NCBI GenBank assembly: GCA_002778465.1
Contig: PFBV01000002.1
Coordinates: 2,312 to 66,311 of the forward strand
Direction of reading: 5' to 3'
Source: Candidatus Magasanikbacteria bacterium CG10_big_fil_rev_8_21_14_0_10_36_32
GTDB taxonomy: Bacteria > Patescibacteriota > Patescibacteriia > Magasanikbacterales > GWA2-37-8
Length of the DNA: 64,000 bases
In this document: in pieces, positions 24,799 to 47,624 of the stretch
How positions within the stretch are numbered: position 1 is the stretch's first letter
Layout of the letters: each line of letters begins with the position of its first letter
Made by a program: the position numbers and the translations under genes
The notes under the pieces: model-generated
The model's input: only the letters and a program-made list of their open reading frames with translations
What the model was told of the DNA's origin: nothing
The model's database searches: none

Positions 24799-25644
24799 AT
24801 GCCAAATTTATTCAATCAAGATTATTTGGCGCATCTTTGCGGAAAATATAATCTTCAACCGTCTAAGCATTACGGTCAGAATTTTTTAATTAATTTTGAG
24901 CCGGTTGAAAAGATGATTGATATATCCGATTTATCAGCTGATGATTCGGTGGTGGAAATTGGTCCGGGTTTTGGCGGTTTAACTTTTGTTTTGGCGGCTA
25001 AAACAAAAAAAGTTTTAGCTTTTGAAATTGAGAAAAAAATATCAGCTTATTGGGAAGAACAAATTAAAAAATACCCAAATATAGAAATTGTTTGGGGAAA
25101 TATTTTAAAACAAAATATAAATTTAAAATTAGAAGCAGGAAATTATAAAGTAGTGGCTAATTTGCCATATCAAATTACTTCATCGGTTATCAGATTTTTT
25201 TTGGAAGCGGAAAATCCGCCGGAGATTATGGTTTTAATGGTTCAAAAAGAAGTGGCGGACAGAATTTGCGCCGAGGCGGGGGATATGTCTTTATTATCGG
25301 TGGCGGTTCAATATTACGCTAAGGCGGAAATTGTCGCTCAAGTTTCGCGTTTAAATTTTTGGCCGGCGCCAAAAGTTGATTCGGCAATAATAAAATTATC
25401 AGTCAATAATCATCAGTCGGTTAAAAATAGTGAAGAATTTTTTAGAATTGTAAAAATTGGATTTGCCAATCGCCGAAAAATGCTGATAAAAAATTTGGAA
25501 TCAATTGTCGGTAAAAAAAACAGATCAAACTTAGAAAAAATTTTTATAAAATTGGATTTAAATCAAAAAATTCGAGCGCAAGAATTATCAGTGGAAAAAT
25601 GGAAACAGTTAACTGATTTATTGAAGCCGATTATCACTATTTAA
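24799..25644 (+). CDS. rsmA: 16S rRNA (adenine1518/1519-N6)-dimethyltransferase
   Basis: KHYGQNFL, VVEIGPGFGGLT, VANLPYQITS and FWPAPKVDS are KsgA/RsmA motifs. Confidence 0.9.
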   Translation: MPNLFNQDYLAHLCGKYNLQPSKHYGQNFLINFEPVEKMIDISDLSADDSVVEIGPGFGGLTFVLAAKTKKVLAFEIEKKISAYWEEQIKKYPNIEIVWGNILKQNINLKLEAGNYKVVANLPYQITSSVIRFFLEAENPPEIMVLMVQKEVADRICAEAGDMSLLSVAVQYYAKAEIVAQVSRLNFWPAPKVDSAIIKLSVNNHQSVKNSEEFFRIVKIGFANRRKMLIKNLESIVGKKNRSNLEKIFIKLDLNQKIRAQELSVEKWKQLTDLLKPIITI

Positions 25645-25688
25645 TGTTGTTTTGATTTATGTTATAATTGATAAAGCTTTATAAAATT

Positions 25689-26354
25689 ATGATAGAGGAA
25701 CAAAATCAAGAAAATTCGCAAAATCAGTTTTCCAAAGAACATAAAATCGGGTTGGTTTTATTATCGCTTTTTGCCGTTTTAGCGGTTGGTTTGGGTATTT
25801 TACAAATTAGAAATAATGCTTATCGTCCGTTTGCTTTAAACAATTCAATCCCGCCATTTTTAAATGAAGAAATAAATACCGAGGAAGCATTGCGTTACCG
25901 TGATACGGATTTAGATGGCTTGAATGATTTTGATGAATTATATATTTACAGCACCAGTCCCTATTTGGAGGATACTGATTCTGATGGGGTTAAAGACAAA
26001 GAGGAAATTGACAAAGGACGAAATCCTCTTTGTTATGAAGGAAAAAATTGCGGTTTTAATGATATGAGCATTAATGCCAGTTCATTTCCGGCCAAACAGG
26101 ATAATGTAGCTTTATATGGCGAAGCGGCTCCGCAATCAATGGAAGAATATTTGCAGAATCCTGACACCATTCGTGAATTGTTACTTACTTCAGGTTTGAG
26201 TCAGGAACTAGTTAATAAATTAACTGATGATGATTTAAAGACAATGGCTGGAGAAATTTTTGCATCCACTACTTTAATGACTGCGTCAAGTACGTCGGAT
26301 GAAACTGATTTGAGCGCCACCGCTGAATTTATAAATGATTTAATGAATAAATAA
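25689..26354 (+). CDS. Membrane-anchored protein with thrombospondin type-3-like Ca-binding repeats
   Basis: ATG at 25689 (track start 25668 is TTG). One TM helix, then DTDLDGLNDFDE and DTDSDGVKDKEE (DxDxDGxxDxxE) repeats. Confidence 0.5.
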   Translation: MIEEQNQENSQNQFSKEHKIGLVLLSLFAVLAVGLGILQIRNNAYRPFALNNSIPPFLNEEINTEEALRYRDTDLDGLNDFDELYIYSTSPYLEDTDSDGVKDKEEIDKGRNPLCYEGKNCGFNDMSINASSFPAKQDNVALYGEAAPQSMEEYLQNPDTIRELLLTSGLSQELVNKLTDDDLKTMAGEIFASTTLMTASSTSDETDLSATAEFINDLMNK

Positions 26355-28030: not shown

Positions 28031-31000
28031 ATGATGAAATGTCCGCGAAAAATTAGTCTGAAAATTTTAATGGCCTTATTTATCGTGTCAGGTTTTTTTG
28101 GCACGGCGATTTTTGGAGTGGAAAAAGCTCAGGCGCAATACGATAATCAAATCAATGCTTCGTTTTTATCTTGGCAGGCGCAGGGTGAAGCGGAAAAAGC
28201 CAAGGCCGAAGTTCAGTCAAATTTATTGAAGAATAAAAATTACATGGTGATGAATGCGGTTATTAATGCCATGAGTTATTTTGCCAATAAAATTTCTTAT
28301 GATATGGCTGTTTGGCTGGCATCGGGTGGAAAAGGACAAGCGCCGTTTTCAAGTACTTCCGGATTTTTTAAATATTTAGGGCAAGTAACCGGAGATTCTC
28401 TCGGTGAATCGCTTGGTTCATTGGGTGAGAGTCTTGGTTTAAATATCTGCGATTTGCCGGATCCGCGGCTGGACTTGGCGCTTCAATTAGGTTTAAATTT
28501 TCATTATGCTGAACCGACACCGAAATGTTCCTGGCAGGATTTAAAAAAAGCTTACAGCGTGGAAAATTTTAAAAGTAAATATCTGAGTCAGGAAGGAACC
28601 ATTGGAAGGTTGTCCGCTTCAGTGACGGTTAAAGATACTGATTTTGGCATTTGGACTGACGCTCGCGCTAAGATTGACGGCATAGCTGTTCAAAAAGAAA
28701 ATGCCGCCCAAGCTGATCGTGAAGAAGGAAGCGGTATGAAAGCTGTAACCGATTTAATTTCCGGACAAGTTAAAACGCCGGCCGTGGTAGTGAAAGACAC
28801 GATGATGAAACAGTCGGCTGACAGTAAAATGACAAAAGAGGAAGCAAAAAAGACCGGTGAGGTTTGGGGAGCTTTCGGCGCGGGCGCTACTCAAGTCGCG
28901 TATAAAGCGGCCAGCACTTTTATCAGTACCATGCTTGGTACGGTGCTTAAGAATTTTATGGAGGGTGGTATGTTGCCGGGAGGACACAAAGTTTGTAATC
29001 CGGGTTTGACATTGACCGGTGTTAATTTGGAACCGTGTTCCAGTGATTCTTCAGGCGGCAATAATTTAGCTGATAATTATTACGCTGACGCCAGAAATAC
29101 TGATAATCGTGCCGCCGCTCAAGCTATGTTTAGCCAATTGTTGATACCCCAAATAAAAACTCTGGATAATTATAATTTGATTGCCAGTTTGGCGGAATGT
29201 TCACCTGAAAATTTATCGCCGGACAGTTGTGTGGTAGATCAATCGTTTTTACAAATTTTACAGTCAGCCGATAATGGAGAATCTTTAACTGTTAAACAGG
29301 CGATGGAAAAAGGCTGGCTACACGGAGATTGGAAAATGATTTCATCGCTTGATAAAGCCGCTTCGCAAAAACAAGATTGTTCCCAGAGCGCTTATTGTCA
29401 GCGTAATATGACATTTTTGCGTCAAGCCAGAATTTTGTCGGTTGGTTTTGAATTTGCCGCGCTTTTATCGCCGGTAAATAATCCGGTTAGCTTAAAAGAA
29501 GTAGTAGACAATTTTTATACCGTTGGCAGTCCTTATTATCATTTGATTAATCCGCATTGGGTTATTAAATTGCCAAAAATTCGCTGTAAAGCTTTTACTT
29601 TCAGTTCTATCGCTCAAAATGGCGCGCGATTGGAAGAATGTTCTGATTTGCAACATTGTGTTGGTTACAATAAAGACGGTTCTTGTCAGACTTGGGGTTA
29701 TTGTATGAAAGAACGTCCAATTTGGAAATTTAATGCCAATTACTGTGATTCGCAATATAGCACTTGTCGAGCATTTACTGATTCTGATGGAAATAGCGTC
29801 GGATATTTGGTTAGAACGTTGGATACCAGTTTTTGCGGAGAAGATACAGATGGTTGCCGTCGTTATTCGGCCGGTAAAGTTTATGCCAGCGCTACTAATT
29901 CCGTTTGGTTGCCGGAAGAAATAAAATATAATACCGTTTCTAATTATTTTTACAATTCCAGTTTATATTTTAATAAAAAACTAACCAGCTGTGACGCTAA
30001 AGATGACGGTTGTTCGGCTTTTAAATTAGCTTCTAAAACTGATACTTTATTATATTTGCGCAAAGCGCCGGATTATCTCGGTTGTTATGATGCTGATTTA
30101 AAATCAGTTCCGGCTAAATTATATGATGGAATTGCTTGGCCGAAAAATTTAACCGAATTAAGTTTGGTTACTCCGCAAAATACTGAAGCTTGTAAAAATT
30201 ATGCTCAGGTTTGTTTGCCTGAAGAAGAAAATTGCAATCTCTACACTTCTGTTTTAAATCAGGAAGCAATACCTGGTAAATTTAAACCGGCTGAAATAGT
30301 TTCCATGACCGCCGGTCAGCAATTAGTTTGGAATGATCAGTGCGATGCTTCTTGTGTCGGTTATGCCGCTTATAAAGAAATGCCAAGCAGTTATACTAAT
30401 GGAGAAAATTTGGCATATATTATTCCTTCATCCGGAAACACCTGCACATCTTATGATGCAGGTTGTTCAGCTTTTACGAATTTGAGCACCACTAATCCGT
30501 CAGGTATGGAACAAACTGAATATTTTTCTTATTTGCGTTCCTGTATTTTGCCGGATCAAACAAAACAAAAAACTTTTTATCTTTATGAAAGTTCAGAATC
30601 AGGCGGATATAAACTGCAAACTTTTGTTTTAGAAAAAGACGCTACTGGCGCGCCAAAACAAATTTGGCGAGATATATCTGAAATTGATTCATTTGGTGAT
30701 TGTGATTCAACCAGTTATGCCGCCGGAACGGCTGATCCGGATTGTCATCAGTTTAATGACGATGGTGGAAATATTTATTATAAATATCTTTCAAAAACAA
30801 TTTTAGTATCGGAAAATTGCAATCCTTATCGTTTGAACAATACCGAGTTGGTTGATGGACAATGTCCGTTTGATTTTGACGGTTTTGGCAATCGTGTTGG
30901 TAATGCGGTGGAGAAAATCAATGAGGCTTGTTATTATTATGGTTTGCCGGTAGGAGATACCAGGGGAGCAGGGGAAACAAAAGTTTGTTCAGCCGCGACT

Positions 31001-34000
31001 AATTCATGCCGCGCCTACAAGGGTAATGCCGGCAATAATGTGCGGGTGGTTTTTCAAGATAATTTTGAAAATGAAGAAATAGGCGATTGGTCTGGAGGTT
31101 TGGGCGGCAGTTTGGAAATTTCCTTGGAATCAAATCAAATTAATGGCCATTCATTAAAGAATTTTGGTCAAGATGGTTTTTATCGTCAGAATGTTGAGGT
31201 TGCAGAAGGTAAGAGTTATGTTTTAACTTTTTGGGCCAAAGGTAATGCTATTATTTTTCCTTCTTTTCAAGATGAAGGAGTTTATAAATTAAGTTTTGGT
31301 GATGCGGTTAGCTTGACTGATGTTTGGCATTATTATTCTTTCGGACCGTTAGAATTTAATCAATCAGTTACCAGTACATATTTAAATTTTAATATTTCAG
31401 GTACGGGATTAAAAAATGTTTTTATAGACAATATAAAATTAATGGAAATTACCGATTACCTGTATTTGGTTAAAAACAGTTTAAGTGTTAATCAGATTTG
31501 TGATAGTAATTTGGAAGATAATATGCCGGGTGAGGCGTTGGGTTGCACGGCCTATAAAGATCCATTAAATAATATATATAATTTAACCAATTTCAGTTAT
31601 CTTTGTCGTGAAGCGGCGGTTGGTTGTACTGCTGTGTTGGATACATATAATACTTTGAATACTGCCGAACCGCGTACTTATAATGTGTGGCTTTATGGCG
31701 AGATGATAAATTTAGATGGTCGGAGCGCTGAGGTGGTAATCGGTGGAAAAACTTTTTCATGTATTGTGCCGACAGGAGCGAAAGGTTGTTATGTTGATAT
31801 TTTTGGACCGACTTTGGCGCAAATAGTAAGTGTTAGTGTTCCTGGTATTTTAACTTCTTCCACTATTTATATTCCGGGAGATACGCCAACCAGTTCACCG
31901 ATTTATTTGGTGGCCAACAAATCGGCAACTTGTAAATCTGAAAATATCGGTTGTCGATCGGTTGGAAAAGGCACTGTCACCAGAGATGGAGTATTGAATC
32001 CTTTGTCCAGTGAATATGAAGATGTGGCGGTTAAAAATGATCCGGCGCTGTTTGATGATGTTTTGTGCGGCAGTGAATCGGTAGGTTGCCGCGGTTACAC
32101 ATCCGGTGACAGCAAATATTATTTTAAAGATCCGAAAATTATCGGCCAACGCGTTTGTGCTTATATGTCCGCTAAAAATGATAGTGGCTTGCCGATTATG
32201 GGTTGGTATTGGAAAGATAATAAAATGTGTGGCGATTCATCCGGATTTTGTTCATCAGATGCCGATTGCGCCGCCGGAGTTAAATGTCAAAATGTTCCGT
32301 GTTATCCTCTTTATTATAAATTTAATGAAACACAAGGCGCTATTGAATGGGGATTGTGGTCTTTTGGCAGTACTCAGTATAAAGGTTTTGTGGGACAATG
32401 TCCTGAAGAACAAAACGGTTGTACTGAATTTATAGATCGTGCCAGCAGCGCTCAGGTTTCTGGTAAAAAATGCGCTTTCACTGGCAAAAAATGTGAACTA
32501 AATAGTGATTGCAATGAAGAAGAAAATGATTATTGTAAAGAAAATGTTTCTGGCACTTATTATCTTTTAAATGATGGAGTTTTGGCTGAAACAAAAAATA
32601 AATGTAATGGCATGGTCAGTCAAGCCGAAGGTTGTATTTTGCTTGATCAAACGGACAAGCCGAATAAATATTGGAATACCACTTCAACCTATGAAGTTTC
32701 CCAATCCGCTCAAGATGCTTTTGTTGTGCCAGTAGATAAAGCCGAATTAAACGATGCCAATATAATTTTAAAAGTTACCCACGACAGAGAATGCGCTGAA
32801 TGGGGATATTGCGATTTAAAACAAGATTATAAAGATGAAGATACTGGTGAAACAACTTCTCGTTGTTATCATTTGGGTGTTTGTCAAAAAGCGACCGGTT
32901 CTTCAATTTTTAACAAAGAATGTTTGGTGCCGGTTACTCAATGGGATGATAAAAATCAGGAACTCTCATTGGCTCATTATAATTCCCGTGAAGCTTATTG
33001 GGATTCTTTGGATTACTCCGGTTATTCAGTGCCATGGCTTTACTCAATTGCTGATTTAACCGCTCGTCCGTTGGCTGGTGATAATTTTCATTTGGTTCAT
33101 GTTGATTACAGTGAAGATGCGGCGGGAGATTGTAATGGCAGCGCCGACAATGGAGATGTTTGCGGTTTGGATGATACGGGAAAGTGTTTTAACGGAGAAT
33201 GTTTGCATTCACCAAATAATTATTCCTCTTTGACTAACCATTTAACATTGTTAAATTGTCGTGGTAACGCCGAAGATTCCAGTCCGTTTCCATCATCTGT
33301 TTTGACTGATGAAAGCGCCAGTTTAGATTATAAAATATTTAAATCAGGATTTGAGAGTGTTAATTTATGTTATGATAAATCCGGCAGTGTGGTAAATTGT
33401 GATTGCAGTTATAAAAAATTAAGAACTTCAGCTGGTGATGTTTATACCCCGTCCAATCAGTCAGTTGGCAGTTCATATGTTTGTAGTGGTGGAACAAAAC
33501 AAGGTAAATTCTGTAATGGAAAAGATGATATCACCACTTGCGGCAGCGATGGTATTTGCGGCGTTATTCAAACATTGAGCGCAATGAACGGCTGGCAGGG
33601 ATATTGTTTGGAACGTGATACGCGACAGTTTATCAATGGCACTGAAACCGGAAATTGTTTGACTTGGTGGCCGATTGAAGTTCCGCCGGGGACTACTAAT
33701 ATTTGGGATATTGACGATTCAGCTGGTTATCAAATTGCTGAAGGAAAACAAGACAGGTTTATGTGTTTGGTTAATGAGCCGGTTATTAACGATCCTGAAA
33801 TAATGATGCATATATTATTATATGGGAGTCATGTTTCCGCAGCCAATGATTATAATATTCAGCAATTACCCAAATCTTATAAAATACAAACCGCCGGTCT
33901 TGACCATAGTTTTAAAATAACCGATTTGCCGCCCAATGCGGCTGTATCTGGTTGTTCGGACAATAATGCGGATGATGATTTTTATGACCCGTTACCTGGA

Positions 34001-36127
34001 ACGCCCAGTAATAATGTATATAATTATCAGATATATGACTATGATAGCAATAAAAATTCAAAAGGAAAGTTTTGTCCAATAAACAGAGAAACTTTGCGCA
34101 AGGATGGCGATACAATGCGAATGTGTGCGAATCCAACTTGGGATGATGATAATCAAACCTATTCTGAATGTCCGCCGTCGGGTATTCTCGCTGCCGATGG
34201 TACGCGTTGGGTAAATAACAACTATGAAAATAAATATTTCCATCGCAATGAAATAGAAAGAATTGATATTGTTTTTGATAGAATAGGCGATGATCAATAT
34301 GCTGATGGATATATTAGTTTTATAACAGACAGTATTAACGCTGTTGAAGGTCATGCTTTTGATACGGAAGAACATTTTTTAAATAAAGAAGGAGAAAGCG
34401 CGACTAAGGGCGTGGTTGATAATTATGAAATGAGATGTCCGGATTGGAATAGTATTGAAGATGGATTGGGAAATTTAAGAGCTTGGGAATGGCGCGGTGG
34501 AGTAGGTGTTCCATCGTGGACTTTGCCTGATGCGGATGATACAACATTAAGTAAAATGCAAGTTCTCGCTCAGGGTGTTTGTGAAGATTTATACAGAGAA
34601 GTTCAAGTTAAATCAAGTGAAGTAAATCAGAAAAATTTGGCTATAAGAGTGGTTTGGGATGGAGATTATCATTTACGCGGTATTTGGGTAAATTTGGAAA
34701 ATACGGGGTCGGCTGATGTAAACGCTGGATTCTTTTTCGTAATCCATTTTAATGATGGCCGTTGTGAAAAATTTGCCAAAGTTGCCACCGATACTGCTTC
34801 AAAAGATTTTGCTTTTAAACCATTCACTAATAATTTAGCGACAGGCAAAACAATCAATATGGGTTCCGCGCCGGTTGGTATTACTTTAACTGACAGAGTT
34901 TCTAATTTAAACGGTGGAAATTACGGATTAGCTTGGGGCGAGGGAGAATATTTAGAACCGCCAAGCGCCAGTGTTAAAGAAGCCTTTGTAAATCCGTTTA
35001 TACCATGGCCCAATACGCATCTTTTTATTGATACTGTGATTTTTTCACAGGGCGGCGATTATTTAAAAAATTATGAAATGACCAATTTTAAAGCCGGCGT
35101 GCCGTTGGTTTGGGCAAGATACGGATTGGCAAAATATGAAGACGGAGGTATTTATGATGGACCTGATTATACAACATTTAATAGTGAGATTTTTGATGTT
35201 TCAACTGTAGATATGCCGTGGGAAATTATGTTGGAAAATATGTACGCCAAAGTTTTTGGACAGTATGAGCAAAGTTACAGTGGTGGTATGCCGACTGAAT
35301 TTACATTATTATCCGGCACGGAATTAGATATGGCAAATTCTGCTAACGCTATCAAAAGCGGATTAAAAATTTATCCGCCTCATGTGGCCGCGCCGATTAT
35401 CGGTTCAACCGGAGATGATTGGCAGTTGGATGCCATATCCGTTAATGACAGGGTGTCCGGTGATATTTATTTAGTCAGCGGTTCGCAGGTGCATATTAAA
35501 TTTTATGCTTGGGCTCATGGTAATCAAATGCCATTGAGAAAAATCTGGGTTGATAAAGGTGATGGAATTAAAATCAGCAATGATAGTGTCAGTTTTGGCA
35601 ACCGCAAATTTAAATGCGCCGAAGGCACTTGTGGCGCCACTGCTGGCGGCTGGCAATTTCCTTGTGAAAATAATGATGATTGTGCGCCATTGTATAGTGA
35701 TTCAATCACGGACGATTCTACTGCCTGTTATTATCCGGCTGCATATGACCATCGTAAGTTTGGTAATACCGGAGATACCGGTTGTCATGAAGGTCCGTAT
35801 GATTTTGTTACTGATTTTAATTGTCCTTACGGCGATTTGACGCATTGGCCTGTTAGTTGGTTGGAACCGGAAGAACAGGCTTATATTCAAAGTCAATTTG
35901 GAGATATTAGTTATGTTTGTATGGTACAACCAAAAGTCCAAGTGACTGATAATTGGGGTTGGTGTAATGGAACTTGTAAAACTACTTATGCTGGAGGTGG
36001 TTCTAATATTGAGGGTGATGGTTGTTATGAAGATTATAGTGGGAAAGATTGTTCAACCGACGAATATGGCAATAACAAAGCTTGGACTAAATATAACGGA
36101 AGATTAATCATTATTCCAACACAATAA
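28031..36127 (+). CDS. Giant (~2,698 aa) secreted/anchored cysteine-rich protein of unknown function
   Basis: ATG at 28031 (track start 28016 is TTG). N-terminal signal/anchor (ILMALFIVSGFFGTAIFGVEKAQA). At least nine C-x6-C-[RST]-x-[FYV] motifs lie between nt ~29.7 and 32.45 kb. Three (W/Q)GYC motifs are present. A CBM/galactose-binding-like module (VVFQDNFENEEIGDWSGG...VFIDNIKLMEI) sits at nt ~31.04-31.45 kb. Many CxxxDC-type Cys clusters occur in the C-terminal half. A strong terminator follows. Confidence 0.8.
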   Translation: MMKCPRKISLKILMALFIVSGFFGTAIFGVEKAQAQYDNQINASFLSWQAQGEAEKAKAEVQSNLLKNKNYMVMNAVINAMSYFANKISYDMAVWLASGGKGQAPFSSTSGFFKYLGQVTGDSLGESLGSLGESLGLNICDLPDPRLDLALQLGLNFHYAEPTPKCSWQDLKKAYSVENFKSKYLSQEGTIGRLSASVTVKDTDFGIWTDARAKIDGIAVQKENAAQADREEGSGMKAVTDLISGQVKTPAVVVKDTMMKQSADSKMTKEEAKKTGEVWGAFGAGATQVAYKAASTFISTMLGTVLKNFMEGGMLPGGHKVCNPGLTLTGVNLEPCSSDSSGGNNLADNYYADARNTDNRAAAQAMFSQLLIPQIKTLDNYNLIASLAECSPENLSPDSCVVDQSFLQILQSADNGESLTVKQAMEKGWLHGDWKMISSLDKAASQKQDCSQSAYCQRNMTFLRQARILSVGFEFAALLSPVNNPVSLKEVVDNFYTVGSPYYHLINPHWVIKLPKIRCKAFTFSSIAQNGARLEECSDLQHCVGYNKDGSCQTWGYCMKERPIWKFNANYCDSQYSTCRAFTDSDGNSVGYLVRTLDTSFCGEDTDGCRRYSAGKVYASATNSVWLPEEIKYNTVSNYFYNSSLYFNKKLTSCDAKDDGCSAFKLASKTDTLLYLRKAPDYLGCYDADLKSVPAKLYDGIAWPKNLTELSLVTPQNTEACKNYAQVCLPEEENCNLYTSVLNQEAIPGKFKPAEIVSMTAGQQLVWNDQCDASCVGYAAYKEMPSSYTNGENLAYIIPSSGNTCTSYDAGCSAFTNLSTTNPSGMEQTEYFSYLRSCILPDQTKQKTFYLYESSESGGYKLQTFVLEKDATGAPKQIWRDISEIDSFGDCDSTSYAAGTADPDCHQFNDDGGNIYYKYLSKTILVSENCNPYRLNNTELVDGQCPFDFDGFGNRVGNAVEKINEACYYYGLPVGDTRGAGETKVCSAATNSCRAYKGNAGNNVRVVFQDNFENEEIGDWSGGLGGSLEISLESNQINGHSLKNFGQDGFYRQNVEVAEGKSYVLTFWAKGNAIIFPSFQDEGVYKLSFGDAVSLTDVWHYYSFGPLEFNQSVTSTYLNFNISGTGLKNVFIDNIKLMEITDYLYLVKNSLSVNQICDSNLEDNMPGEALGCTAYKDPLNNIYNLTNFSYLCREAAVGCTAVLDTYNTLNTAEPRTYNVWLYGEMINLDGRSAEVVIGGKTFSCIVPTGAKGCYVDIFGPTLAQIVSVSVPGILTSSTIYIPGDTPTSSPIYLVANKSATCKSENIGCRSVGKGTVTRDGVLNPLSSEYEDVAVKNDPALFDDVLCGSESVGCRGYTSGDSKYYFKDPKIIGQRVCAYMSAKNDSGLPIMGWYWKDNKMCGDSSGFCSSDADCAAGVKCQNVPCYPLYYKFNETQGAIEWGLWSFGSTQYKGFVGQCPEEQNGCTEFIDRASSAQVSGKKCAFTGKKCELNSDCNEEENDYCKENVSGTYYLLNDGVLAETKNKCNGMVSQAEGCILLDQTDKPNKYWNTTSTYEVSQSAQDAFVVPVDKAELNDANIILKVTHDRECAEWGYCDLKQDYKDEDTGETTSRCYHLGVCQKATGSSIFNKECLVPVTQWDDKNQELSLAHYNSREAYWDSLDYSGYSVPWLYSIADLTARPLAGDNFHLVHVDYSEDAAGDCNGSADNGDVCGLDDTGKCFNGECLHSPNNYSSLTNHLTLLNCRGNAEDSSPFPSSVLTDESASLDYKIFKSGFESVNLCYDKSGSVVNCDCSYKKLRTSAGDVYTPSNQSVGSSYVCSGGTKQGKFCNGKDDITTCGSDGICGVIQTLSAMNGWQGYCLERDTRQFINGTETGNCLTWWPIEVPPGTTNIWDIDDSAGYQIAEGKQDRFMCLVNEPVINDPEIMMHILLYGSHVSAANDYNIQQLPKSYKIQTAGLDHSFKITDLPPNAAVSGCSDNNADDDFYDPLPGTPSNNVYNYQIYDYDSNKNSKGKFCPINRETLRKDGDTMRMCANPTWDDDNQTYSECPPSGILAADGTRWVNNNYENKYFHRNEIERIDIVFDRIGDDQYADGYISFITDSINAVEGHAFDTEEHFLNKEGESATKGVVDNYEMRCPDWNSIEDGLGNLRAWEWRGGVGVPSWTLPDADDTTLSKMQVLAQGVCEDLYREVQVKSSEVNQKNLAIRVVWDGDYHLRGIWVNLENTGSADVNAGFFFVIHFNDGRCEKFAKVATDTASKDFAFKPFTNNLATGKTINMGSAPVGITLTDRVSNLNGGNYGLAWGEGEYLEPPSASVKEAFVNPFIPWPNTHLFIDTVIFSQGGDYLKNYEMTNFKAGVPLVWARYGLAKYEDGGIYDGPDYTTFNSEIFDVSTVDMPWEIMLENMYAKVFGQYEQSYSGGMPTEFTLLSGTELDMANSANAIKSGLKIYPPHVAAPIIGSTGDDWQLDAISVNDRVSGDIYLVSGSQVHIKFYAWAHGNQMPLRKIWVDKGDGIKISNDSVSFGNRKFKCAEGTCGATAGGWQFPCENNDDCAPLYSDSITDDSTACYYPAAYDHRKFGNTGDTGCHEGPYDFVTDFNCPYGDLTHWPVSWLEPEEQAYIQSQFGDISYVCMVQPKVQVTDNWGWCNGTCKTTYAGGGSNIEGDGCYEDYSGKDCSTDEYGNNKAWTKYNGRLIIIPTQ

Positions 36128-36140: not shown

Positions 36141-36178
36141 AAATCCCCCAACAATTTAGTTGGGGGATTTGTTTTTTT
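36141..36178. terminator. Bidirectional rho-independent terminator
   Basis: AAATCCCCCAAC-aattta-GTTGGGGGATTT followed by GTTTTTTT, with an A-run upstream that serves the minus strand. Confidence 0.8.
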
Positions 36179-36222: not shown

Positions 36223-36747
36223 TCAAGCGTAACCTGACTGAATCAGATTGCCATTGGATAGTATAGTCGCTATCAGCCAGCCGCAACTGCCGGTTTTTAC
36301 CAGTGGCAGATTCTTTCCTTGATAATCTCCCTTGAGAAAAGCGAGAGTGCCGTTTCCGGTAAAGTTTACCACGCACATATTTCCGATTTCCGGAGTGATT
36401 GTGACGGTCATCACCATGGTAGTTTCAGTGTTGTACCAGTCGCCGGCGATATGTGTCAGCTCATTGCAACTAGCAGGATCAATGAAAACCAGTTTGGACA
36501 ATTCCGTGTCCATCACACTGTTTTCCGGCTCGGTAATGATTGGCGGCAGATTGAGATCTGAATCGCCGTTCATTTCTGAATCGCCGTATTCATCCATCAA
36601 TTCGCCACCATCAATGTCTTCGTCATAAGGATAACATCCAGATGTTATAACGGCGAACAAGAGCATTACAGCAATGGCTATAATTGCAATGACAATTGTG
36701 GCAACCGCTCCTACTGTAACATGGGAATCATAATGTAAATTTCTCAC
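36223..36747 (-). CDS. Small putative lipoprotein, atypically GC-rich
   Basis: GTG start preceded by AAGGAGG. TM/signal segment ending in the lipobox-like AVITSGC. Acidic linker, then a beta-rich domain. A hand-counted 60-nt sample (36241-36300) has 28 G+C (47%). Confidence 0.55.
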   Translation of the reverse strand: MRNLHYDSHVTVGAVATIVIAIIAIAVMLLFAVITSGCYPYDEDIDGGELMDEYGDSEMNGDSDLNLPPIITEPENSVMDTELSKLVFIDPASCNELTHIAGDWYNTETTMVMTVTITPEIGNMCVVNFTGNGTLAFLKGDYQGKNLPLVKTGSCGWLIATILSNGNLIQSGYA

Positions 36748-37094: not shown

Positions 37095-40000
37095 ATGCTA
37101 CAGACTTTAGCCCGGACCGGGCGAAAATTTTGGAATTTTATCAGACCGCGCAGAAAGTGGGGTCTTATTTCGCTTTTTATTTTTGCCGGTGTCGGTTTGT
37201 GTGTTTATTTTTTTGGCGGAACATTGGTAAATTCAGCCGGTGGTTCTGAAGAAGTATATCAAGGCACTTTGCTTACTAAAATAGTAACCGATATTATGGT
37301 TTGGATTGCCGGATTTTTTATTCAGGCAACAGTTTTTATAATGGATTTTGTTATTGAAATAGCCGGTTATAGTAATTTTATAAATTCCAAAGCGGTTTTA
37401 TTTGGTTGGACGCTGGTGCGTGACATTGCCAATATGTTTTTTGTTGTGATTTTATTGATAATCGCTTTTGGTACGGTTTTGGGCGCTGAAACATATAGCT
37501 GGAAAAAACTTTTGGTAAAATTTGTTTTAGCGGCCGTGTTAGTGAATTTTAGCCGGATAATTTGCGGAATAATTATTGATGCCGCTCAGGTGTTTATGAT
37601 GACTTTTTTGAATGGTGTGGCGGCGGTAGCCGGTGGAAATATTATTAATGCTTTTAAATTAAATGATGTTTTAAGTTTTGATCCGAATGTGCAACCGGAA
37701 GGAATGACAGATGTCAGTGTTTTAGGTTCAGCCATTGCTTGTATGTTTTTTGCGGCGATTGCCGCCTTTACCATCGGCGCTTATTTTATTGTTTTACTCG
37801 GACGTTTAGTGACTTTATGGATTTTAATAATTTTATCGCCGTTGGCTTTTGTTTTAAATGTTATTCCAAAAACTCAATCTTATGCCGGACAATGGTGGTC
37901 TGAATTTACCAACAATGTTATTGCCGGTCCGATTTTGGCTTTTTTTCTTTGGTTGTCTTTTGCTGTGGTTGGCGATGGAATGCCTCATAATGAATTAAGC
38001 GATAATTCGGCTTTTATGTTAAATACCGAATCAGTGGAAAGTACGGGGAATAATAATGTAATGGGTGGTTTGGCTAAAGTTATGGAATGGGGAAATTTGG
38101 CAAATTTTATAATCGCCGTCGGTATGCTTTTAGCCGGCGTAAAAGCAACTCAAAAATTAGGTGTGATTGGTTCCGGTATGCTCGGGAGCGCGGTGGAAAT
38201 GGGCAAAAAAGTTGCGACAGTGGCGACTGGAATAGCGGCTGGCCGATGGTTGGCGCAAAAAGGTGTTGAAGGAACAAAAATTGCAGGCAAAGGCGTGTTG
38301 ATGAAAGCGCCATTTGTTGGCGGAGATGCTTGGAAACGGCGCGGTAGAACTATTGCCGGAAAAGTGTCTTCAAAAGTTCAGGATATTCAATATGCCCGCG
38401 AACAGGCGGCAAAAAAATTAGAGAAAAAAGGTGGTTTTGGAAAATTTGCCGCTGGAATTATTGAAACTGCAACTAAAAAAGAAGAAGCGTCTAAACAATG
38501 GGGGAAATTAGCCGCGATGAAAAAAGAAGTCAGAATGGAAGATATGGGTTTAGGTTCGCGTCAAGTTGGAAAAGATACTTTAGTGGAAAAAGTTCGTTTA
38601 GATACGCTTAAGGCGCAGAGTACTGCCGCCAAAGAACGCTGGTATAATAATGCTTTAGTTAAATTTTATAACGCGCCGGATGAATTAAAAGATTTACAAA
38701 CTCAGCGTGGCGGTTTAGCGACCAGAGAATCAGCGGAACAGGCGATTGTTCAGGAAGCCAGTTTGGAAATTGCTAAAGCTCAAGCTGAGTTGGAGAACAT
38801 AAAAGACAATCCGGAAAAAATCAAACAATTGAATGATAGTATTGCGCAGAGTACTGCTATTAAACAAAATGCTGAACAAAATTTATCTCAGATTGTTGAT
38901 ACCAAAAAAACACTTGATAAACAAGTTGATACTATTTTCAAAGACGATAAAAAATGGAACAAAGACAGTTTGATTGGAAAGGATATTTTAGAACAGAGAA
39001 TCCAAAAGGAAAAAAATATGTCTGATGTGGCCGCCGCTCAAGGTATGATGGAATTAAGTTATTTAAATACCGAAGCCGGCAGACAAGCTCAAGTCAACGC
39101 GGCGGAATCAAAAATTATTCAACAACAGATGGGAGAAACAGTCAATGCTCAAAAACAATTGGTTGAATTAAAAAAGATTGAAGAATTATTGAAAAAGCCG
39201 CAGCCGGGACAAGATGCGTCTGCTTTGTCCGCACGTTATCAGGCTTTGCAGCAGGATATGTATTCCTCCAAAGCCGGCGGAGAACAATTGCGGATTGATC
39301 AAGCTCGCGAGGCGGAAAAGAAATTAGCTGTGGCTCGTGATGAAAAATTAAAACAATCCAGTCAGTTACCTCGTTATTTAAGCCAAGTTTTGCAAAAACA
39401 AAATAAAGAGGATATTGATATGTATTCCTCAAAAAACTTTGACCAAATGATGGCTAATATTAAATTTTTGAGCGGTCAAATGGAAAAAGAGACAGATGTT
39501 GACAAGAAAAGCATAATGCAAAAAGATTTACAGAATTGGGTGGTAGCCTCCTTTAATCGCGGTTCTGATTTTGGCTTAGCCGCTTTGAGTACGGCAAAGA
39601 AAAATAAAGATATTTCCGCTGATAATGTGGATAGCGCCAGAGCTGCTCACTTATCGGCCTTTTTAGGGGAAGAAGTGGAACAGTCATCTGAAGGTGTGAA
39701 TAAGGCTATGGAAAAAATGAAAAAATTGCAGGGTGAAAACTTTGACGCTTTTATGACGAATTATGTTGGCGGTTTATCAATGATGGCTGATAATGGCGCG
39801 GTAACGCACGGCGGTTTGTATAAAATGGTGACTGATAAAAATACCGGCCGGCAGACTTATGAAGTGACACATAAAGATTATGATAAAGATTTGATTAAAT
39901 CCAAAAGAGATTATCATTTGTCTCAGGCTAGGCAAGCCGGTCGCGGATTTAATGGTTCTTTAGATTTTAAAGACGGTAAATTTAAATTAGACAGTGAAGT

Positions 40001-40247
40001 ATCGGTTAACCATGTTGTAAATTTGATTGGCGCTAGAACTTCGGTCGGTTATGCTAATATGCACAAGATGAATTTAGATTCATTAAGCTCTGCCATTGAA
40101 AATACTGATAAGGAAGAATTTTTGAAACAATTAGGTGAAAAATTAAGTAAAAGCATTACTGAAACAAAAGCGATGGAGATGTTATTAAAACGCATTTCGG
40201 GAAAAGCTTTAGATAAAATTAATAAATATATTACATCAAATAAATAA
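37095..40247 (+). CDS. Polytopic membrane protein (VirB6/TrbL/PrgH-like topology) with a ~700-aa K/E/Q-rich coiled-coil extension
   Basis: ~8 hydrophobic helices in the first ~340 aa (e.g. ANMFFVVILLIIAFGTVLG, LWILIILSPLAFVLNVIP). The remainder is low-complexity helical sequence rich in K/E/Q/A. Confidence 0.5.
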   Translation: MLQTLARTGRKFWNFIRPRRKWGLISLFIFAGVGLCVYFFGGTLVNSAGGSEEVYQGTLLTKIVTDIMVWIAGFFIQATVFIMDFVIEIAGYSNFINSKAVLFGWTLVRDIANMFFVVILLIIAFGTVLGAETYSWKKLLVKFVLAAVLVNFSRIICGIIIDAAQVFMMTFLNGVAAVAGGNIINAFKLNDVLSFDPNVQPEGMTDVSVLGSAIACMFFAAIAAFTIGAYFIVLLGRLVTLWILIILSPLAFVLNVIPKTQSYAGQWWSEFTNNVIAGPILAFFLWLSFAVVGDGMPHNELSDNSAFMLNTESVESTGNNNVMGGLAKVMEWGNLANFIIAVGMLLAGVKATQKLGVIGSGMLGSAVEMGKKVATVATGIAAGRWLAQKGVEGTKIAGKGVLMKAPFVGGDAWKRRGRTIAGKVSSKVQDIQYAREQAAKKLEKKGGFGKFAAGIIETATKKEEASKQWGKLAAMKKEVRMEDMGLGSRQVGKDTLVEKVRLDTLKAQSTAAKERWYNNALVKFYNAPDELKDLQTQRGGLATRESAEQAIVQEASLEIAKAQAELENIKDNPEKIKQLNDSIAQSTAIKQNAEQNLSQIVDTKKTLDKQVDTIFKDDKKWNKDSLIGKDILEQRIQKEKNMSDVAAAQGMMELSYLNTEAGRQAQVNAAESKIIQQQMGETVNAQKQLVELKKIEELLKKPQPGQDASALSARYQALQQDMYSSKAGGEQLRIDQAREAEKKLAVARDEKLKQSSQLPRYLSQVLQKQNKEDIDMYSSKNFDQMMANIKFLSGQMEKETDVDKKSIMQKDLQNWVVASFNRGSDFGLAALSTAKKNKDISADNVDSARAAHLSAFLGEEVEQSSEGVNKAMEKMKKLQGENFDAFMTNYVGGLSMMADNGAVTHGGLYKMVTDKNTGRQTYEVTHKDYDKDLIKSKRDYHLSQARQAGRGFNGSLDFKDGKFKLDSEVSVNHVVNLIGARTSVGYANMHKMNLDSLSSAIENTDKEEFLKQLGEKLSKSITETKAMEMLLKRISGKALDKINKYITSNK

Positions 40248-42463: not shown

Positions 42464-42889
42464 ATGCAACAATTTGTCGTACCTCAATTTATTGATGTGG
42501 AAGATAAAATTTTCGGACCAATCACGGCGCGGCAGTTTGTGATTTTATTGGTGGCAACATTAATTATTTTTCTCACTTATAAATTAGCTGATATTACATT
42601 ATTTATTTTTTTAACTTTGGTAATAGGCGGTTTAGCTTTAGTTTTTGCTTTTGTTAAAGTAAACGGACAGCCGTTCCATTATGTTATTTTAAGCATGATT
42701 CAGACATTACGCCGACCGAGTTTAAGAGTTTGGAATAAAACTTTTGACAAAAGCGAATTAACTCATTATCGTGAAGAATCAAAAGTTGTGGTTGTTGAAA
42801 AAATTAAACGAGTGCCAAAATTGTCTTACAGCCGTATTCGAGATTTATCTTTGGTGGTAAATACCGGCGGTTATTATAAACCTGAATAA
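42464..42889 (+). CDS. PrgI-family (VirB3-like) small T4SS membrane protein
   Basis: N-terminal VPQFIDVEDKIFGPITARQFVILLVA followed by two TM helices, as in Gram-positive conjugation PrgI/VirB3-like proteins. It sits upstream of VirB4. Confidence 0.65.
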   Translation: MQQFVVPQFIDVEDKIFGPITARQFVILLVATLIIFLTYKLADITLFIFLTLVIGGLALVFAFVKVNGQPFHYVILSMIQTLRRPSLRVWNKTFDKSELTHYREESKVVVVEKIKRVPKLSYSRIRDLSLVVNTGGYYKPE

Positions 42890-42891
42890 TT

Positions 42892-43581
42892 ATGAAAAAT
42901 AAAAAAGCGGTCAATAAAAGAAATGCCGTTCCGACTACACAAAAAAATACGGCTATCGCTGAAATTAAACATGATACTGTAGTGGTAAAAGATGGTACTT
43001 TGCGTTCGGTTTTGATGGTGTCCAGTATTAATTTTGCTTTAAAAAATGACGATGAACAGCAGGCGATTGTGTCTAATTATGTTTCTTTTTTAAATTCGCT
43101 TGATCATCCTTTGCAAATTCTTATTCAATCCCGTCAGCTTAATATAAAACCGTATTTGGAAAGATTGGCGGACAAAGAAAAAGAACAGCCAAATGAATTG
43201 TTAAGAATGCAAATTGCCGATTATCGTTCGTTTGTTTCAGAATTGGTCAATTTGGGAAAAATTATGAGTAAACATTTTTTTGTGGTGGTGCCTTACGATC
43301 CGCTGACAAATAAAAAAAGAGGTTTTTGGTCGCGTTTGCTTGAAGTTATTAATCCGGCCATTACAGTTCGTTTGAAAGAAGAAAGATTTTTGCAGAGAAA
43401 GAGAGATTTGGATATGCGAGTAAGACAAATTCAAGGCGGTTTGCAAAGTATGGGGTTGGAAGTTGTTAAATTAGATACTCAATCGTTGATTGAACTTTAT
43501 TATTCCGCGTATAATCCGGATATCGCTCTTAGCGAACCGTTGGCGGATGTGGTGGAAACCATGCAATTAGAAAACGCTTAA
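42892..43581 (+). CDS. Hypothetical protein between the VirB3-like and VirB4 genes
   Basis: 229 aa and soluble. The segment IKHDTVVVKDGTLRSVLMVSSINFALKNDDEQQAIVSNYVSFLNSL resembles the extreme N-terminal module of Gram-positive VirB4-type proteins. This is by-eye inference only. Confidence 0.45.
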   Translation: MKNKKAVNKRNAVPTTQKNTAIAEIKHDTVVVKDGTLRSVLMVSSINFALKNDDEQQAIVSNYVSFLNSLDHPLQILIQSRQLNIKPYLERLADKEKEQPNELLRMQIADYRSFVSELVNLGKIMSKHFFVVVPYDPLTNKKRGFWSRLLEVINPAITVRLKEERFLQRKRDLDMRVRQIQGGLQSMGLEVVKLDTQSLIELYYSAYNPDIALSEPLADVVETMQLENA

Positions 43582-43591
43582 TTTTTTATTT

Positions 43592-45463
43592 ATGGCATTT
43601 AAACCAAGCTCAATTAAAGCAGAAAAAGAATCTACTGGTCGTCTTAAAGAAGATGAAAACAAAATAAAGAAGCAGACGGCCGAAGAAATGATTACTTTGG
43701 AAGAAGAAAAGATTTTTCGCGAAGGTGTTGTCAGTATCCGTGATTTAATAGCGCCTTCCGCTTTTCGCGTTGAATCCAGTTTTATACAATTGGGTGATTT
43801 ATATTGCCGGACTATTTTCATTACCGCTTACCCGAGATATATTTCCATCGGCTGGAGTTCGCCGGTTATTAATTTGTCGGTCACCATGGACATCTCAATG
43901 TTTTTTTATCCGGTTAAATCAGCTGTTATTTTAAAACAATTAAAAAATAAAGTCGGCGCTTTGGAAGCGCAAATTAGTTCCGACACAGAAAAAGGCGCGC
44001 CTCGCGATCCAATTCGGGAAACAGCTTTGCGCGATATTGAACAATTGCGAGATAATTTAACGCAAGGAATTGAACATTTTTTTCAATTTTGTTTTTATGT
44101 TACTCTTTACGCCAAAAGTAAAGAGGAATTGGATCAAACCACTGAAGATATTGAAAATATTTTCGGTTCAAAACTGATTATGAGTCGCAAAGTTTTATAT
44201 CAGGCGGAACAAGGTTTTAATTCCACTTTACCGATGGCAAATGACGAATTGTACATTGCTTTTAATATGAATTCGTCTCCGATTGCCGCTTCTTTTCCAT
44301 TTATTTCCGCGGAATTAACCTCAGATGATGGTATTCTTTATGGCATTAATCGCCATAATAACAGTTTGATTTTGTTTGACCGGTTTTCTTTGCAAAATGG
44401 CAATATGGTGGTTTTCGCTTCGGCCGGTGCCGGAAAAAGTTACGCCGTTAAACTGGAAGTTTTGCGCACAATGATGATGGGAACCGATGTGATGATTATT
44501 GATCCGGAAATGGAATATAAACATCTTTGTGATGCGGTTGGTGGAACTTACATTAGTATTTCGTTGTCTTCGGAAGCAAAAATCAATCCATTTGATTTGC
44601 CCCGTCCGGTCGGTTCTGATATTTCCACTGAGGATATTATTCGTAGCGCCGTTATTACCATGAAAGGCTTGTTGCGTATTATGTTGAATGGTTTGACGGT
44701 GGAGCAGGATTCAATTATGGATAGAGCTTTGATTGAAACTTACGCCAAGAAAGATATTACGCCGGAGGCGGATTTATCCAATATTAAACCGCCGATTATG
44801 CAGGATTTAGTGGAAGTTTTGGAAGGTATGCAAGGTTCCGATGAATTGGTAATGAAATTAAAAAAATATACCGAAGGAACTTTCAGTGGACTGTTTAATT
44901 CGCCGACTAATGTTGATGTTAAAAATCAATTGGTGATTTATAGTGTTCGTGATTTAGAGGATGAACTTCGCCCGATTGCTATTTATTCAATCGTTAACTA
45001 TATTTGGAATGTTGTACGTTCGGAAAGAAAAAAACGAGTTTTGGTGATTGATGAAGCTTGGTGGCTGATGATGCATGAGGACAGCGCCAGATTTATTTAT
45101 GGTTTGGTTAAACGCTGCCGAAAATATTATCTCGGAGTGACTACTATCACTCAGGATGTGAATGACTTTTTGAAATCTCAATATGGACAGGCGATCGTTA
45201 CCAACTCGGCTTTGCAGTTGTTGTTGCGTCAGTCGCCGGCGGCGGTGGATTTGGTTCAGCGGGTGTTTATGTTGACTGACAGCGAGAAATATTTGTTATT
45301 GGAAAGCGGAGTGGGCGAGGGTATATTTTTTGCCGGCAATAAACATGCCGCCATTAAAGTTGTTGCTTCTTATACAGAAGATCAGTTGGTTACCACCAAT
45401 CCGGAACAATTATTGGCTATAGAAAAAGCAAAGCGCGAATTTGAAGAACAGAGTAAAAAATAA
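43592..45463 (+). CDS. virB4: VirB4/PrgJ-class T4SS ATPase
   Basis: Walker A FASAGAGKSYAV, Walker B RVLVIDEAWWLM, downstream GVTTITQD motif. The N-terminal half (IRDLIAPSAF..GDLYCRTIFITAYPRYISIGW) is as in Gram-positive VirB4 homologs. Confidence 0.85.
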   Translation: MAFKPSSIKAEKESTGRLKEDENKIKKQTAEEMITLEEEKIFREGVVSIRDLIAPSAFRVESSFIQLGDLYCRTIFITAYPRYISIGWSSPVINLSVTMDISMFFYPVKSAVILKQLKNKVGALEAQISSDTEKGAPRDPIRETALRDIEQLRDNLTQGIEHFFQFCFYVTLYAKSKEELDQTTEDIENIFGSKLIMSRKVLYQAEQGFNSTLPMANDELYIAFNMNSSPIAASFPFISAELTSDDGILYGINRHNNSLILFDRFSLQNGNMVVFASAGAGKSYAVKLEVLRTMMMGTDVMIIDPEMEYKHLCDAVGGTYISISLSSEAKINPFDLPRPVGSDISTEDIIRSAVITMKGLLRIMLNGLTVEQDSIMDRALIETYAKKDITPEADLSNIKPPIMQDLVEVLEGMQGSDELVMKLKKYTEGTFSGLFNSPTNVDVKNQLVIYSVRDLEDELRPIAIYSIVNYIWNVVRSERKKRVLVIDEAWWLMMHEDSARFIYGLVKRCRKYYLGVTTITQDVNDFLKSQYGQAIVTNSALQLLLRQSPAAVDLVQRVFMLTDSEKYLLLESGVGEGIFFAGNKHAAIKVVASYTEDQLVTTNPEQLLAIEKAKREFEEQSKK

Positions 45464-45493: not shown

Positions 45494-46090
45494 ATGACTA
45501 CACTCCGCACAAGAATTTTTATTATTTTTAGCATATTTTTTCTGTTCGTTTTAGCGGTTAGCATTATTTTGATTGTGATTAATAAGCAAAAACAGGCGGT
45601 TATTGAAACAACTTCTACACCGTCGGCGATAGATTTTGATAATTTTACGCAGGATAAAATTAGCGCGCCGGCTGCCCAAGTGACGCCAACTCAAGGAATA
45701 ACCGTAAAACAACCAACCACTGAGGAACAAATGAAAAATGCCGCTAAACAGATAGCAAAGATTTTTGTGGAACGCTATGGCACTTATTCCACTGATAATA
45801 ATTTCAGCAATATTAAAGAATTGGATACAATGTGCAGTCGGGATTTGTGGAGTGTTTTAAGTTCGCGGATAACTGACACTCAGGTCAATAACGGATTTGT
45901 CGGTGTTACCACTAAAGCGGTTACCTCAGTAATCACTTCTTGGCAAACAGATAAAGCTATTGTTGAAATTACAACTGTCCGGACAGAAACAAAAGATGGC
46001 GTCACTTCTTCAAAAAATCAAAAAGCTACAGTTACTTTGGTTAATGTTCAGAATAATTGGCTGGTGGATGATGCAAAATGGGGACAATAA
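45494..46090 (+). CDS. Bitopic membrane protein, VirB8/PrgL-like candidate
   Basis: One N-terminal TM helix, a T/P/Q-rich linker, and a ~115-aa C-terminal alpha+beta domain (AAKQIAKIFVERYGTYS...ATVTLVNVQNNWLVDDAKW). This is compatible with an NTF2-like fold, and the gene follows VirB4. Confidence 0.35.
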   Translation: MTTLRTRIFIIFSIFFLFVLAVSIILIVINKQKQAVIETTSTPSAIDFDNFTQDKISAPAAQVTPTQGITVKQPTTEEQMKNAAKQIAKIFVERYGTYSTDNNFSNIKELDTMCSRDLWSVLSSRITDTQVNNGFVGVTTKAVTSVITSWQTDKAIVEITTVRTETKDGVTSSKNQKATVTLVNVQNNWLVDDAKWGQ

Positions 46091-46852: not shown

Positions 46853-46925
46853 ATATCCTTGACTTTGCATAAATAATGTGCTATTTTAAAATCATCTGCG
46901 CATAACAAACCATGGAGGTGATGAA

Positions 46926-47084: not shown

Positions 47085-47104
47085 TTCTTTTTTAGAAAAA
47101 TCCG

Positions 47105-47131
47105 CCAGCTGTTTTTAACAGCTGGCTTTTT
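47105..47131 (+). terminator. Rho-independent terminator
   Basis: CCAGCTG-tttttaa-CAGCTGG followed by CTTTTT. Confidence 0.65.
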
Positions 47132-47160: not shown

Positions 47161-47180
47161 CGAGATGATTTGTTCAGTGT

Positions 47181-47209: not shown

Positions 47210-47221
47210 TATCCGAGAATT

Positions 47222-47528: not shown

Positions 47529-47624
<96 letters not shown>

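Follow-up and report, generated by a model that had tools for sequence, protein, structure and literature searches.

Much of bacterial diversity belongs to the Patescibacteria (the candidate phyla radiation, CPR), which seem to live in attachment to other microorganisms. The chromosomal type IV secretion system (T4SS) described in these bacteria lacks a relaxase and is reported to be essential for epibiotic growth in the one genetically tractable species, and a survey of patescibacterial T4SS loci detected no adhesin (Quinonero-Coronel et al. 2025, PMC12102498). Here we analyse a 64,000-nucleotide stretch of the genome of the ultrasmall Candidatus Magasanikbacteria bacterium CG10_big_fil_rev_8_21_14_0_10_36_32 (contig PFBV01000002.1, positions 2,312 to 66,311 of the forward strand; hereafter the window), in which a gene for a giant, cysteine-rich, secreted protein lies ahead of such a T4SS locus. 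The most likely reading, in which our confidence is about even, is that this protein is the host-contact arm, with an adhesin or recognition function, of the chromosomal patescibacterial T4SS. For the component with which these cells take hold of the host, the family to which it belongs is the best candidate to date, and it would fill the adhesin gap noted in the survey. That host-dependent bacteria make giant surface proteins, and that an adhesin may be encoded beside a T4SS, is already known; what is new is the family itself, its folds, its extreme predicted disulfide content and the fixed module formed with a TSP3-repeat partner and the T4SS genes.

Among described proteins, PrgB of pCF10, which belongs to a Gram-positive T4SS of the MPF-FATA class, is likewise a large Sec-exported surface protein with a presumed role in cell-cell contact. 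On pCF10 prgB presumably lies ahead of prgH, prgI and prgJ, an arrangement that the layout of the giant gene parallels. In both cases the gene precedes VirB6/VirB3/VirB4-type genes of a monoderm-type T4SS, since PrgH, PrgI and PrgJ are equivalent to VirB6, VirB3 and VirB4 (PMC12624023). The two proteins are nevertheless dissimilar in both sequence and domains: in the giant protein Pfam at E <= 1 detected neither a polymer-adhesin (GbpC-like) domain nor Ig-like Csp domains, and its C-terminus carries no LPXTG motif, ending instead in G-x-[IV][IV]V-x-P. The giant protein is twice the size of PrgB and is predicted to hold about 49 disulfides, whereas PrgB is, as far as is known, essentially free of Cys; and where the PrgB locus is borne on a plasmid, that of the giant protein sits on the chromosome, is inherited vertically and has no relaxase. 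Other giant surface proteins of the CPR, with FhaB, fibronectin-III, laminin-G or Big domains, and the giant VirB6 extensions of Anaplasma are thought to act in host contact (PMC11809585, PMC13059738, PMC7648143). Our protein resembles these in being very large, surface-targeted and encoded by host-dependent bacteria with reduced genomes; however, they are built from known repeat domains, whereas the present family is non-repetitive, Cys-rich and of apparently novel fold.

The gene is an intact and real member of its family. An initial annotation, made from the sequence alone, had described a single uninterrupted 8.1-kb open reading frame (ORF) filling about one eighth of the window, and both points hold: the frame runs without interruption to position 36127 of the plus strand from one of three candidate starts (TTG 28016, ATG 28031 or ATG 28034, the last being that of the NCBI model, P0001) and takes up 12.7% of the window. 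A hypothetical protein recorded for Candidatus Magasanikbacteria CG10_big_fil_rev matches the product with 100% identity. Because each homolog is one gene of equal length, and not split into several as would be expected had the annotated frame been artificially joined, the ORF is not an assembly chimera. That it should be either a chimera or a decaying pseudogene is so improbable as to be effectively refuted, given the open frame, the strong conservation of Cys positions and the fact that hundreds of independent assemblies contain co-linear homologs of equal length.

The family is large. A first search returned 34 homologs of 2,000-3,900 residues, the nearest having 42-45% identity over 100% of the length, and a profile search extended these to 77, mostly of similar length with a few truncated. 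A hidden Markov model (HMM) of residues 1-525, searched against 1.84 billion cluster representatives (50% identity clusters), matched 1,972 representatives at E <= 1e-3, of which 1,142 also passed E <= 1e-30. With few exceptions these are proteins of 2,500-3,200 residues, and the matched domain is always N-terminal; the shorter matches are probably contig-end fragments. A search with one peptide pattern identified 163 relatives among the GTDB species representatives. Record titles name Magasanikbacteria, Falkowbacteria, Uhrbacteria, Komeilibacteria, Parcubacteria/Paceibacterota or simply 'Patescibacteria group'. About half of 80 related loci came from metagenome-assembled genomes titled 'uncultured Gammaproteobacteria' (many of them third-party annotation records), and single ones from genomes titled Methanoregula or Udaeobacter. 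Every one of these oddly titled loci with enough flanking sequence shows the CPR-type order of ksgA, TSP3 partner, giant gene and T4SS genes, and the taxon labels or bins therefore look wrong. The labels are all patescibacterial or evidently mistaken, and the family is restricted to Patescibacteria. In databases its members are named 'hypothetical protein' or 'carbohydrate binding domain-containing protein'; no prior description of a giant Cys-rich family of this kind was found in the searchable literature, and Pfam, NCBIfam and PDB yield a carbohydrate-binding module (CBM) only, so that the initial annotation was right not to recognise a described family.

The protein contains 99 Cys (3.67%), compared with 113 among the 16,888 residues of the other 45 ORFs of the window (0.67%), a content 5.5 times that of the neighbouring genes. 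It had been described as built around a recurrent C-x6-C-[RST]-x-[FYV] motif. All nine copies are present, with the first Cys at residues 572, 602, 654, 805, 986, 1192, 1301, 1346 and 1457, whereas among 2,000 shuffled sequences the mean was 0.087 copies and none had more than 2. For C-x6-C without the rest of the motif the count is 13, where 3.6 +/- 1.8 would be expected. In 120 aligned family members, conservation is 99-100% for the 18 Cys that belong to these motifs, and it is 93% or higher for 58 of the total of 99. Where the description does not hold is in the suggestion of a repeat architecture. Segments centred on the motif align with one another in register (hhalign probability mostly 50-92%, lower for some pairs) over only 12-26 columns, and the recurrent unit is therefore a mini-module of about 25 residues and not a long domain repeat. 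As judged from these alignments it comprises a strand and a stapled loop, scattered among otherwise non-repetitive domains; a reading as tandem domain repeats was rejected for the same reason. The three GYC motifs (residues 556, 1592 and 1857) and the CxxxDC clusters that had been listed are likewise present. A match to a characterised Cys-rich repeat family would have spoken against novelty, but a Pfam search of the whole protein at E <= 1 gave no match to EGF, furin-like, TSP1, Myxococcus Cys-rich repeat or other described families of this type.

Two features of the family bear on the state of these Cys. The number remaining after removal of the signal peptide is even in 171 of 180 full-length members (binomial p = 6e-40), which argues that essentially all are paired in disulfides, and the Cys that vary within the family are gained or lost jointly with a near neighbour (1243/1252, r = 0.96; 1399/1406, r = 0.98; 1480/1493, r = 1.0). 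The parity is the signature of complete pairing, and on this basis the 98 Cys of the mature window protein are predicted to form about 49 disulfides. The initial annotation had proposed an extracellular architecture stabilised by disulfides or metal; the former is well supported by parity and paired gain and loss, while the same two features disfavour metal clusters.

Secretion, which had also been proposed, is borne out by an N-terminus with a basic n-region, a 23-residue hydrophobic core and A-Q-A ahead of Q36. Sec-type signal peptides with a conserved A-x-A site occur throughout the 77 homologs examined, and many mature N-termini in the family begin with a beta-strand-like Q-[LF]-x-V-x-V. 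Beyond the signal peptide, the conservation profile of the 120 aligned members, with identity measured to the reference, divides the protein into a conserved first ~1,900 residues (identity 0.24-0.45), a hypervariable cassette (residues ~1900-2400 in this profile; identity 0.07-0.16, mostly with 50-60% of positions gapped) in which BLAST alignments break, and a last ~250 residues that are conserved again. A conserved shaft followed by a hypervariable cassette is a layout typical of recognition proteins.

AlphaFold2 (AF2) modelling covered residues 1-1150. Residues 45-312 were modelled as long helices with low confidence (predicted local distance difference test score, pLDDT, 30-60) and the hairpin-rich stretch of residues 560-800 was poorly modelled, while good models were obtained for the alpha/beta domain of residues 381-520 and for a beta domain at residues 805-995. 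These two confident domains have no fold match in the PDB. The single CBM- or galactose-binding-like module of the initial annotation is supported at the level of the predicted fold. Although CBM_4_9 (PF02018) scores only 17.9 bits on the window protein against a cut-off of 25.9 (E = 0.004), it is precomputed on many homologs, and the family profile matches the laminarinase CBM4 in the PDB (1gui) with E = 3.9e-6. The AF2 model of the module (pLDDT ~83) matches CBM4, CBM22, CBM16 and CBM61 structures in Foldseek (E = 1e-7 to 1e-6, TM-score to the target 0.6-0.75). Residues ~1000-1150 thus form, in the model, a beta-jelly-roll CBM fold, the only known module in the giant protein. With CBM families 4/9/16/22/61 this ~150-residue module shares its fold and a weak sequence signature; unlike a typical CBM it sits in a non-enzymatic giant protein, where it may bind carbohydrate, as members of the superfamily do through an aromatic-lined cleft. 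Three distant members (P0026, P0028 and P0030) appear to carry an extra CBM_4_9-like insert at a site after about residue 664 of the window protein, seen in fragment sequences read by eye (N-x-x-F-E ... W ... D-x-[IV]-x-L-E) and in the insertion site of the alignment; these would appear to be cases of modular gain of lectin domains in the shaft. Run over the full sequence at E <= 1, Pfam returned CBM_4_9 and nothing else; SLH, Big, cadherin, FhaB and RTX domains are among those not detected. Sequence searches of Pfam, NCBIfam and the PDB likewise gave the CBM module only, and a PDB search with the N-terminal profile added nothing more.

The C-terminal region contains DNWGWC in 131 of 180 members, and 120 of 180 have an [ILV]3-x-P strand a few residues from the extreme C-terminus, typically following G-x. 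Together with the beta-like mature N-terminus, this conserved strand could be a structural closing strand or a strand-complementation or sorting signal. No LP.TG sequence occurs in the last 80 residues of nine representatives, and no hydrophobic tail was seen in the C-terminal sequences examined.

The gene neighbourhood was assessed in the 80 GTDB loci most similar to the query, and the counts that follow describe Magasanikbacteria-like lineages rather than the whole family. In the window the order is ksgA (24799-25644), TSP3 partner, PMT_2, giant gene, terminator, a small minus-strand gene, the VirB6-like gene, two genes without assignment and then PrgI, TrsD and VirB4. A ksgA gene lies upstream of the giant gene in 62 of 64 loci. 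The TSP3 partner lies immediately upstream in all 64 assessable loci, a linkage tighter than that to the T4SS; the partner encoded in the window matches the gene directly upstream of the homolog in locus L001 (tblastn, E = 5e-67), and TSP3_bac scores 27.9 bits in one partner ortholog against a gathering threshold of 25. It may serve to anchor the giant protein or act as its chaperone. Downstream, the VirB6-like gene opens the T4SS block 968 nt from the giant gene; it has no Pfam match, and was assigned by position and topology rather than by an HMM. It is found downstream in 38 of the 40 loci with at least 5 kb of flanking sequence, at a median distance of 1.25 kb. The adjacent T4SS-like operon of the initial annotation is confirmed by Pfam matches to PrgI (E = 9e-10), TraC_F_IV (E = 0.003, below threshold) and P-loop_TraG (E = 2e-29). 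Nine loci extend 8 kb or more downstream; PrgI, TrsD and VirB4 are present in seven of them, and the same order follows the homologs in L001, L003 and L005. Coordinates of these features are collected in Table 1.

Table 1. Features of the giant protein gene and of its neighbourhood (positions in the window; residues numbered from ATG 28031).
Feature	Position	Strand	Remarks
Partner gene, 228-residue bitopic membrane protein with bacterial TSP3 (Ca-binding) repeats	25668..26354	+	conserved NPxCxxGxxC motif
Giant Cys-rich protein gene	28031..36127	+	2,698 residues from ATG 28031
Predicted Sec signal peptide, residues 1-35	28031..28135	+	A-Q-A then Q36; hydrophobic core, residues 8-31
N-terminal region predicted all-helical, residues 36-360	28136..29110	+	signature K-[IL]-A-Y-D-x-A-x-W-L-A-S-G-G-K-G-Q, from the alignment
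Conserved alpha/beta domain, residues 381-520	29171..29590	+	invariant R464, R467, E474; no known fold
Span with nine C-x6-C-[RST]-x-[FYV] predicted disulfide-stapled loops	29744..32431	+	
CBM4/9/22-like beta-sandwich (lectin-like) module, residues ~1000-1150, from the model	31028..31480	+	
Second half of the conserved Cys-rich core, residues 1151-1915	31481..33775	+	EWGYC, GWQGYC, CxxxDC clusters
Hypervariable cassette, ~500 residues, residues ~1916-2450	33776..35380	+	
Conserved Cys-rich C-terminal region, residues 2465-2698	35423..36124	+	DNWGWC; terminal G-x-[IV][IV]V-x-P strand
Bidirectional intrinsic terminator	36141..36170	both	12-bp stem, 6 GC pairs, T-runs on both strands
VirB6-like polytopic membrane protein with long C-terminal extension	37095..40247	+	several predicted transmembrane segments, residues 21-294
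Two conserved T4SS-locus genes, 343 and 395 residues	40280..42461	+	
PrgI (VirB3), TrsD/TraC-like protein and VirB4 ATPase	42464..45463	+	

According to the reading that we favour, the giant protein would be exported by Sec and its signal peptide cleaved, after which its 98 Cys would form about 49 disulfides, many of them as C-x6-C staples closing short loops, to give an extracellular fibre that is rigid and resists proteases. Its shaft would consist of the first ~1,900 residues, which are conserved, with a helical base, the novel alpha/beta and beta domains and the lectin-like CBM4/9/22 module, and the ~500-residue hypervariable cassette with the conserved Cys-rich C-terminal region would form the distal end. 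The protein would be held at the cell surface through its N-terminal helical region, perhaps by way of the TSP3-repeat partner, the VirB6-like platform or both. The lectin module and the cassette would supply binding specificity, so that the protein could bind glycans or other structures on the surface of the host bacterium and dock the T4SS channel on the host. We infer all of the functional steps, namely that the protein is retained at the surface, that it binds the host and that it cooperates physically with the T4SS.

Several observations weigh against this reading. The AF2 models are poor for residues 1-360 and 560-800, and the CBM match of the window protein itself falls under the Pfam threshold. 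As neither an LPXTG-type anchor nor a hydrophobic tail was found in the C-terminal sequences examined, retention at the surface has to be assumed. A strong terminator, beginning 14 nt past the stop codon of the giant gene, and a gene on the opposite strand intervene between the giant gene and the T4SS block, which are therefore not one transcript here. The more distant homologs in L002, L004 and L006 have no T4SS genes within the flanking sequence fetched, and the same is true of two of the 40 assessable loci (L038 and L075). Co-occurrence of homologs with the T4SS, which the initial annotation had raised, is seen within the fetched flanks as the VirB6-like gene downstream in 38 of 40 loci, but not in these five.

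These last observations are also what would be expected of a general envelope or surface-layer (S-layer)-like protein that coats or stiffens the cell, in which case the neighbouring T4SS would reflect an accident of gene order, conserved yet without functional meaning. Vertically inherited chromosomal synteny with the housekeeping gene ksgA (62 of 64 loci), the gene's presence in 163 or more species representatives from these lineages, its own terminator and the homologs without nearby T4SS genes would all be accommodated by such a role, and CPR cells do show elaborate surface layers in cryo-electron microscopy. However, a hypervariable cassette of ~500 residues and a lectin module suit recognition better than a lattice, no SLH or other S-layer domain was found by Pfam, and linkage to the VirB6-like gene in 38 of 40 loci, across lineages that have diverged to ~30% identity, would be hard to keep by chance; we therefore regard an S-layer-like role as distinctly unlikely. 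More improbable again, in our view, is that the host envelope is the target of a secreted enzyme or toxin, such as a glycan or peptidoglycan degrader or a pore former with the CBM as its targeting module. Modules of the CBM type are typical of carbohydrate-active enzymes, the invariant Arg, Arg and Glu of residues 381-520 could on sequence grounds be catalytic, and T4SS loci usually need a VirB1-like hydrolase, none of which was recognised in the window. Yet neither Pfam and NCBIfam nor searches of the PDB by sequence and by fold revealed a catalytic family, and 2,700 residues with about 49 predicted disulfides would be disproportionate for an enzyme.

A more specific version of the host-contact arm is that the protein is a giant equivalent of VirB5 and an integral part of the T4SS, its N-terminus, after cleavage of the signal peptide, docking on the VirB6-like platform as VirB5/TrwJ does and the remaining ~2,500 residues forming a built-in tip fibre. 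VirB5 is seated on VirB6 and ends up at the tip of the pilus, and no VirB5 is known from monoderm-type T4SS (PMC12624023); the family might then be the missing VirB5 or tip adhesin of the monoderm-type (MPF-FATA-derived) patescibacterial T4SS, with the lectin module and cassette setting host specificity, a proposal that we hold only tentatively. With the minor pilins VirB5, TrbJ, TraC and TraI the giant protein has in common a Sec signal peptide, a VirB6-type neighbouring gene (downstream in 38 of 40 loci) and a presumed contact function. In a subset of members the likeness may extend to a mature N-terminus of the form A-x-A|Q-[FLM]-V-V-[ST]-D-P, in which the residues from Q onwards are VirB5-like, followed by a region predicted to be all-helical. 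Three independent minor-pilin models gave weak matches to the N-termini of several members: Pfam DUF4141 in five of 16 (best E = 3.6e-5, below threshold), and in NCBIfam both TrbJ (E = 0.019) and 'pilin minor subunit VirB5', the latter with E-values of 4e-4 and 7e-4. DUF4141 is precomputed on genuine VirB5 proteins and marks a gene beside traJ in Bacteroides conjugative transposons, which by its position we take to be traI; TraI of CTnDOT has been reported to be homologous to VirB5 (PMC4027160). An hhalign comparison of the family N-terminus with a VirB5 alignment gave a probability of 66% (P = 5.6e-5), with the peptidase site and 'AQ|FVVSDP' aligned. Set against this, the hhalign match spans 23 columns only and is partly signal peptide, and the scores lie far under the curated cut-offs (23.5 against 30 bits for DUF4141; about 20 bits in NCBIfam against 346 for VirB5 and 225, models PRK13860 and PRK13874). 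Of 196 members, no more than ~10-20 show the strict motif; the window protein is not one of them and has no match to the VirB5/TrbJ minor-pilin HMMs. Moreover, unlike the VirB5-type pilins the giant protein is about 12 times longer, with similarity confined to ~23 residues. Nothing homologous to the helical bundle of VirB5 was found, a PDB profile search returned neither VirB5 nor TraC, and AF2 confidence in the helices of residues 45-312 is too low for a fold comparison. The VirB5 proposal is thus attractive but unproven, and on balance rather unlikely; if it is true, the family would be the physical bridge by which epibionts engage host bacteria.

Other genes of the locus were also considered. 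The PMT_2 glycosyltransferase was dropped as a dedicated glycosylase for the giant protein, being adjacent only in the window and in the L001/L032 genome. The convergent gene beyond the terminator (36223-36747, minus strand) encodes a membrane- or lipoprotein-like protein of 174 residues, and was rejected as part of the system when no homolog was found in any of 86 loci. VirB4 function is split here between a 229-residue TrsD/TraC-like protein (42892-43581, plus strand) and a 623-residue ATPase (43592-45463, plus strand), and likewise in L001, L003 and L005, an arrangement described as typical of Patescibacteria (PMC12102498). Directly after VirB4, 45494-46090 (plus strand) encodes a 198-residue protein with an N-terminal transmembrane helix and no Pfam match, whose position and topology would suit a VirB8/PrgL-like component. 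Further on, 46142-47624 holds a ComFC-like gene (double zinc ribbon and phosphoribosyltransferase) and then a GIY-YIG nuclease ORF, which stops 1 nt ahead of a tRNA-Ser(GCT) at 47529-47624.

Two other giant proteins were compared, both of them Cys-poor. The first is encoded in the window itself (3918-9683, plus strand), next to response regulators, a PAS histidine kinase and ComEC; it has 1,921 residues with Big_6, Flg_new_2 and Big_13 domains and a single Cys, and no homology between this Big-domain giant and the Cys-rich protein was detected. The second, in L002 (18720-26861), lies directly downstream of the homolog P0026 and encodes an unrelated protein of 2,713 residues with 4 Cys. It is followed by a giant gene with laminin-G and DUF2341 domains, such that three giant surface-protein genes are clustered at this locus without nearby T4SS genes.

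The family offers a concrete candidate for contact between the patescibacterial T4SS and the host, combining a conserved shaft, a lectin-like module, a hypervariable cassette, an obligate TSP3 partner and fixed linkage to VirB6, VirB3 and VirB4. With about 49 predicted disulfides per chain the giant protein would also be an extreme bacterial case of a disulfide-rich extracellular architecture, which implies a capacity for oxidative folding in organisms with minimal genomes. Finally, the hypervariable cassette could serve as a marker of host range in metagenomes.

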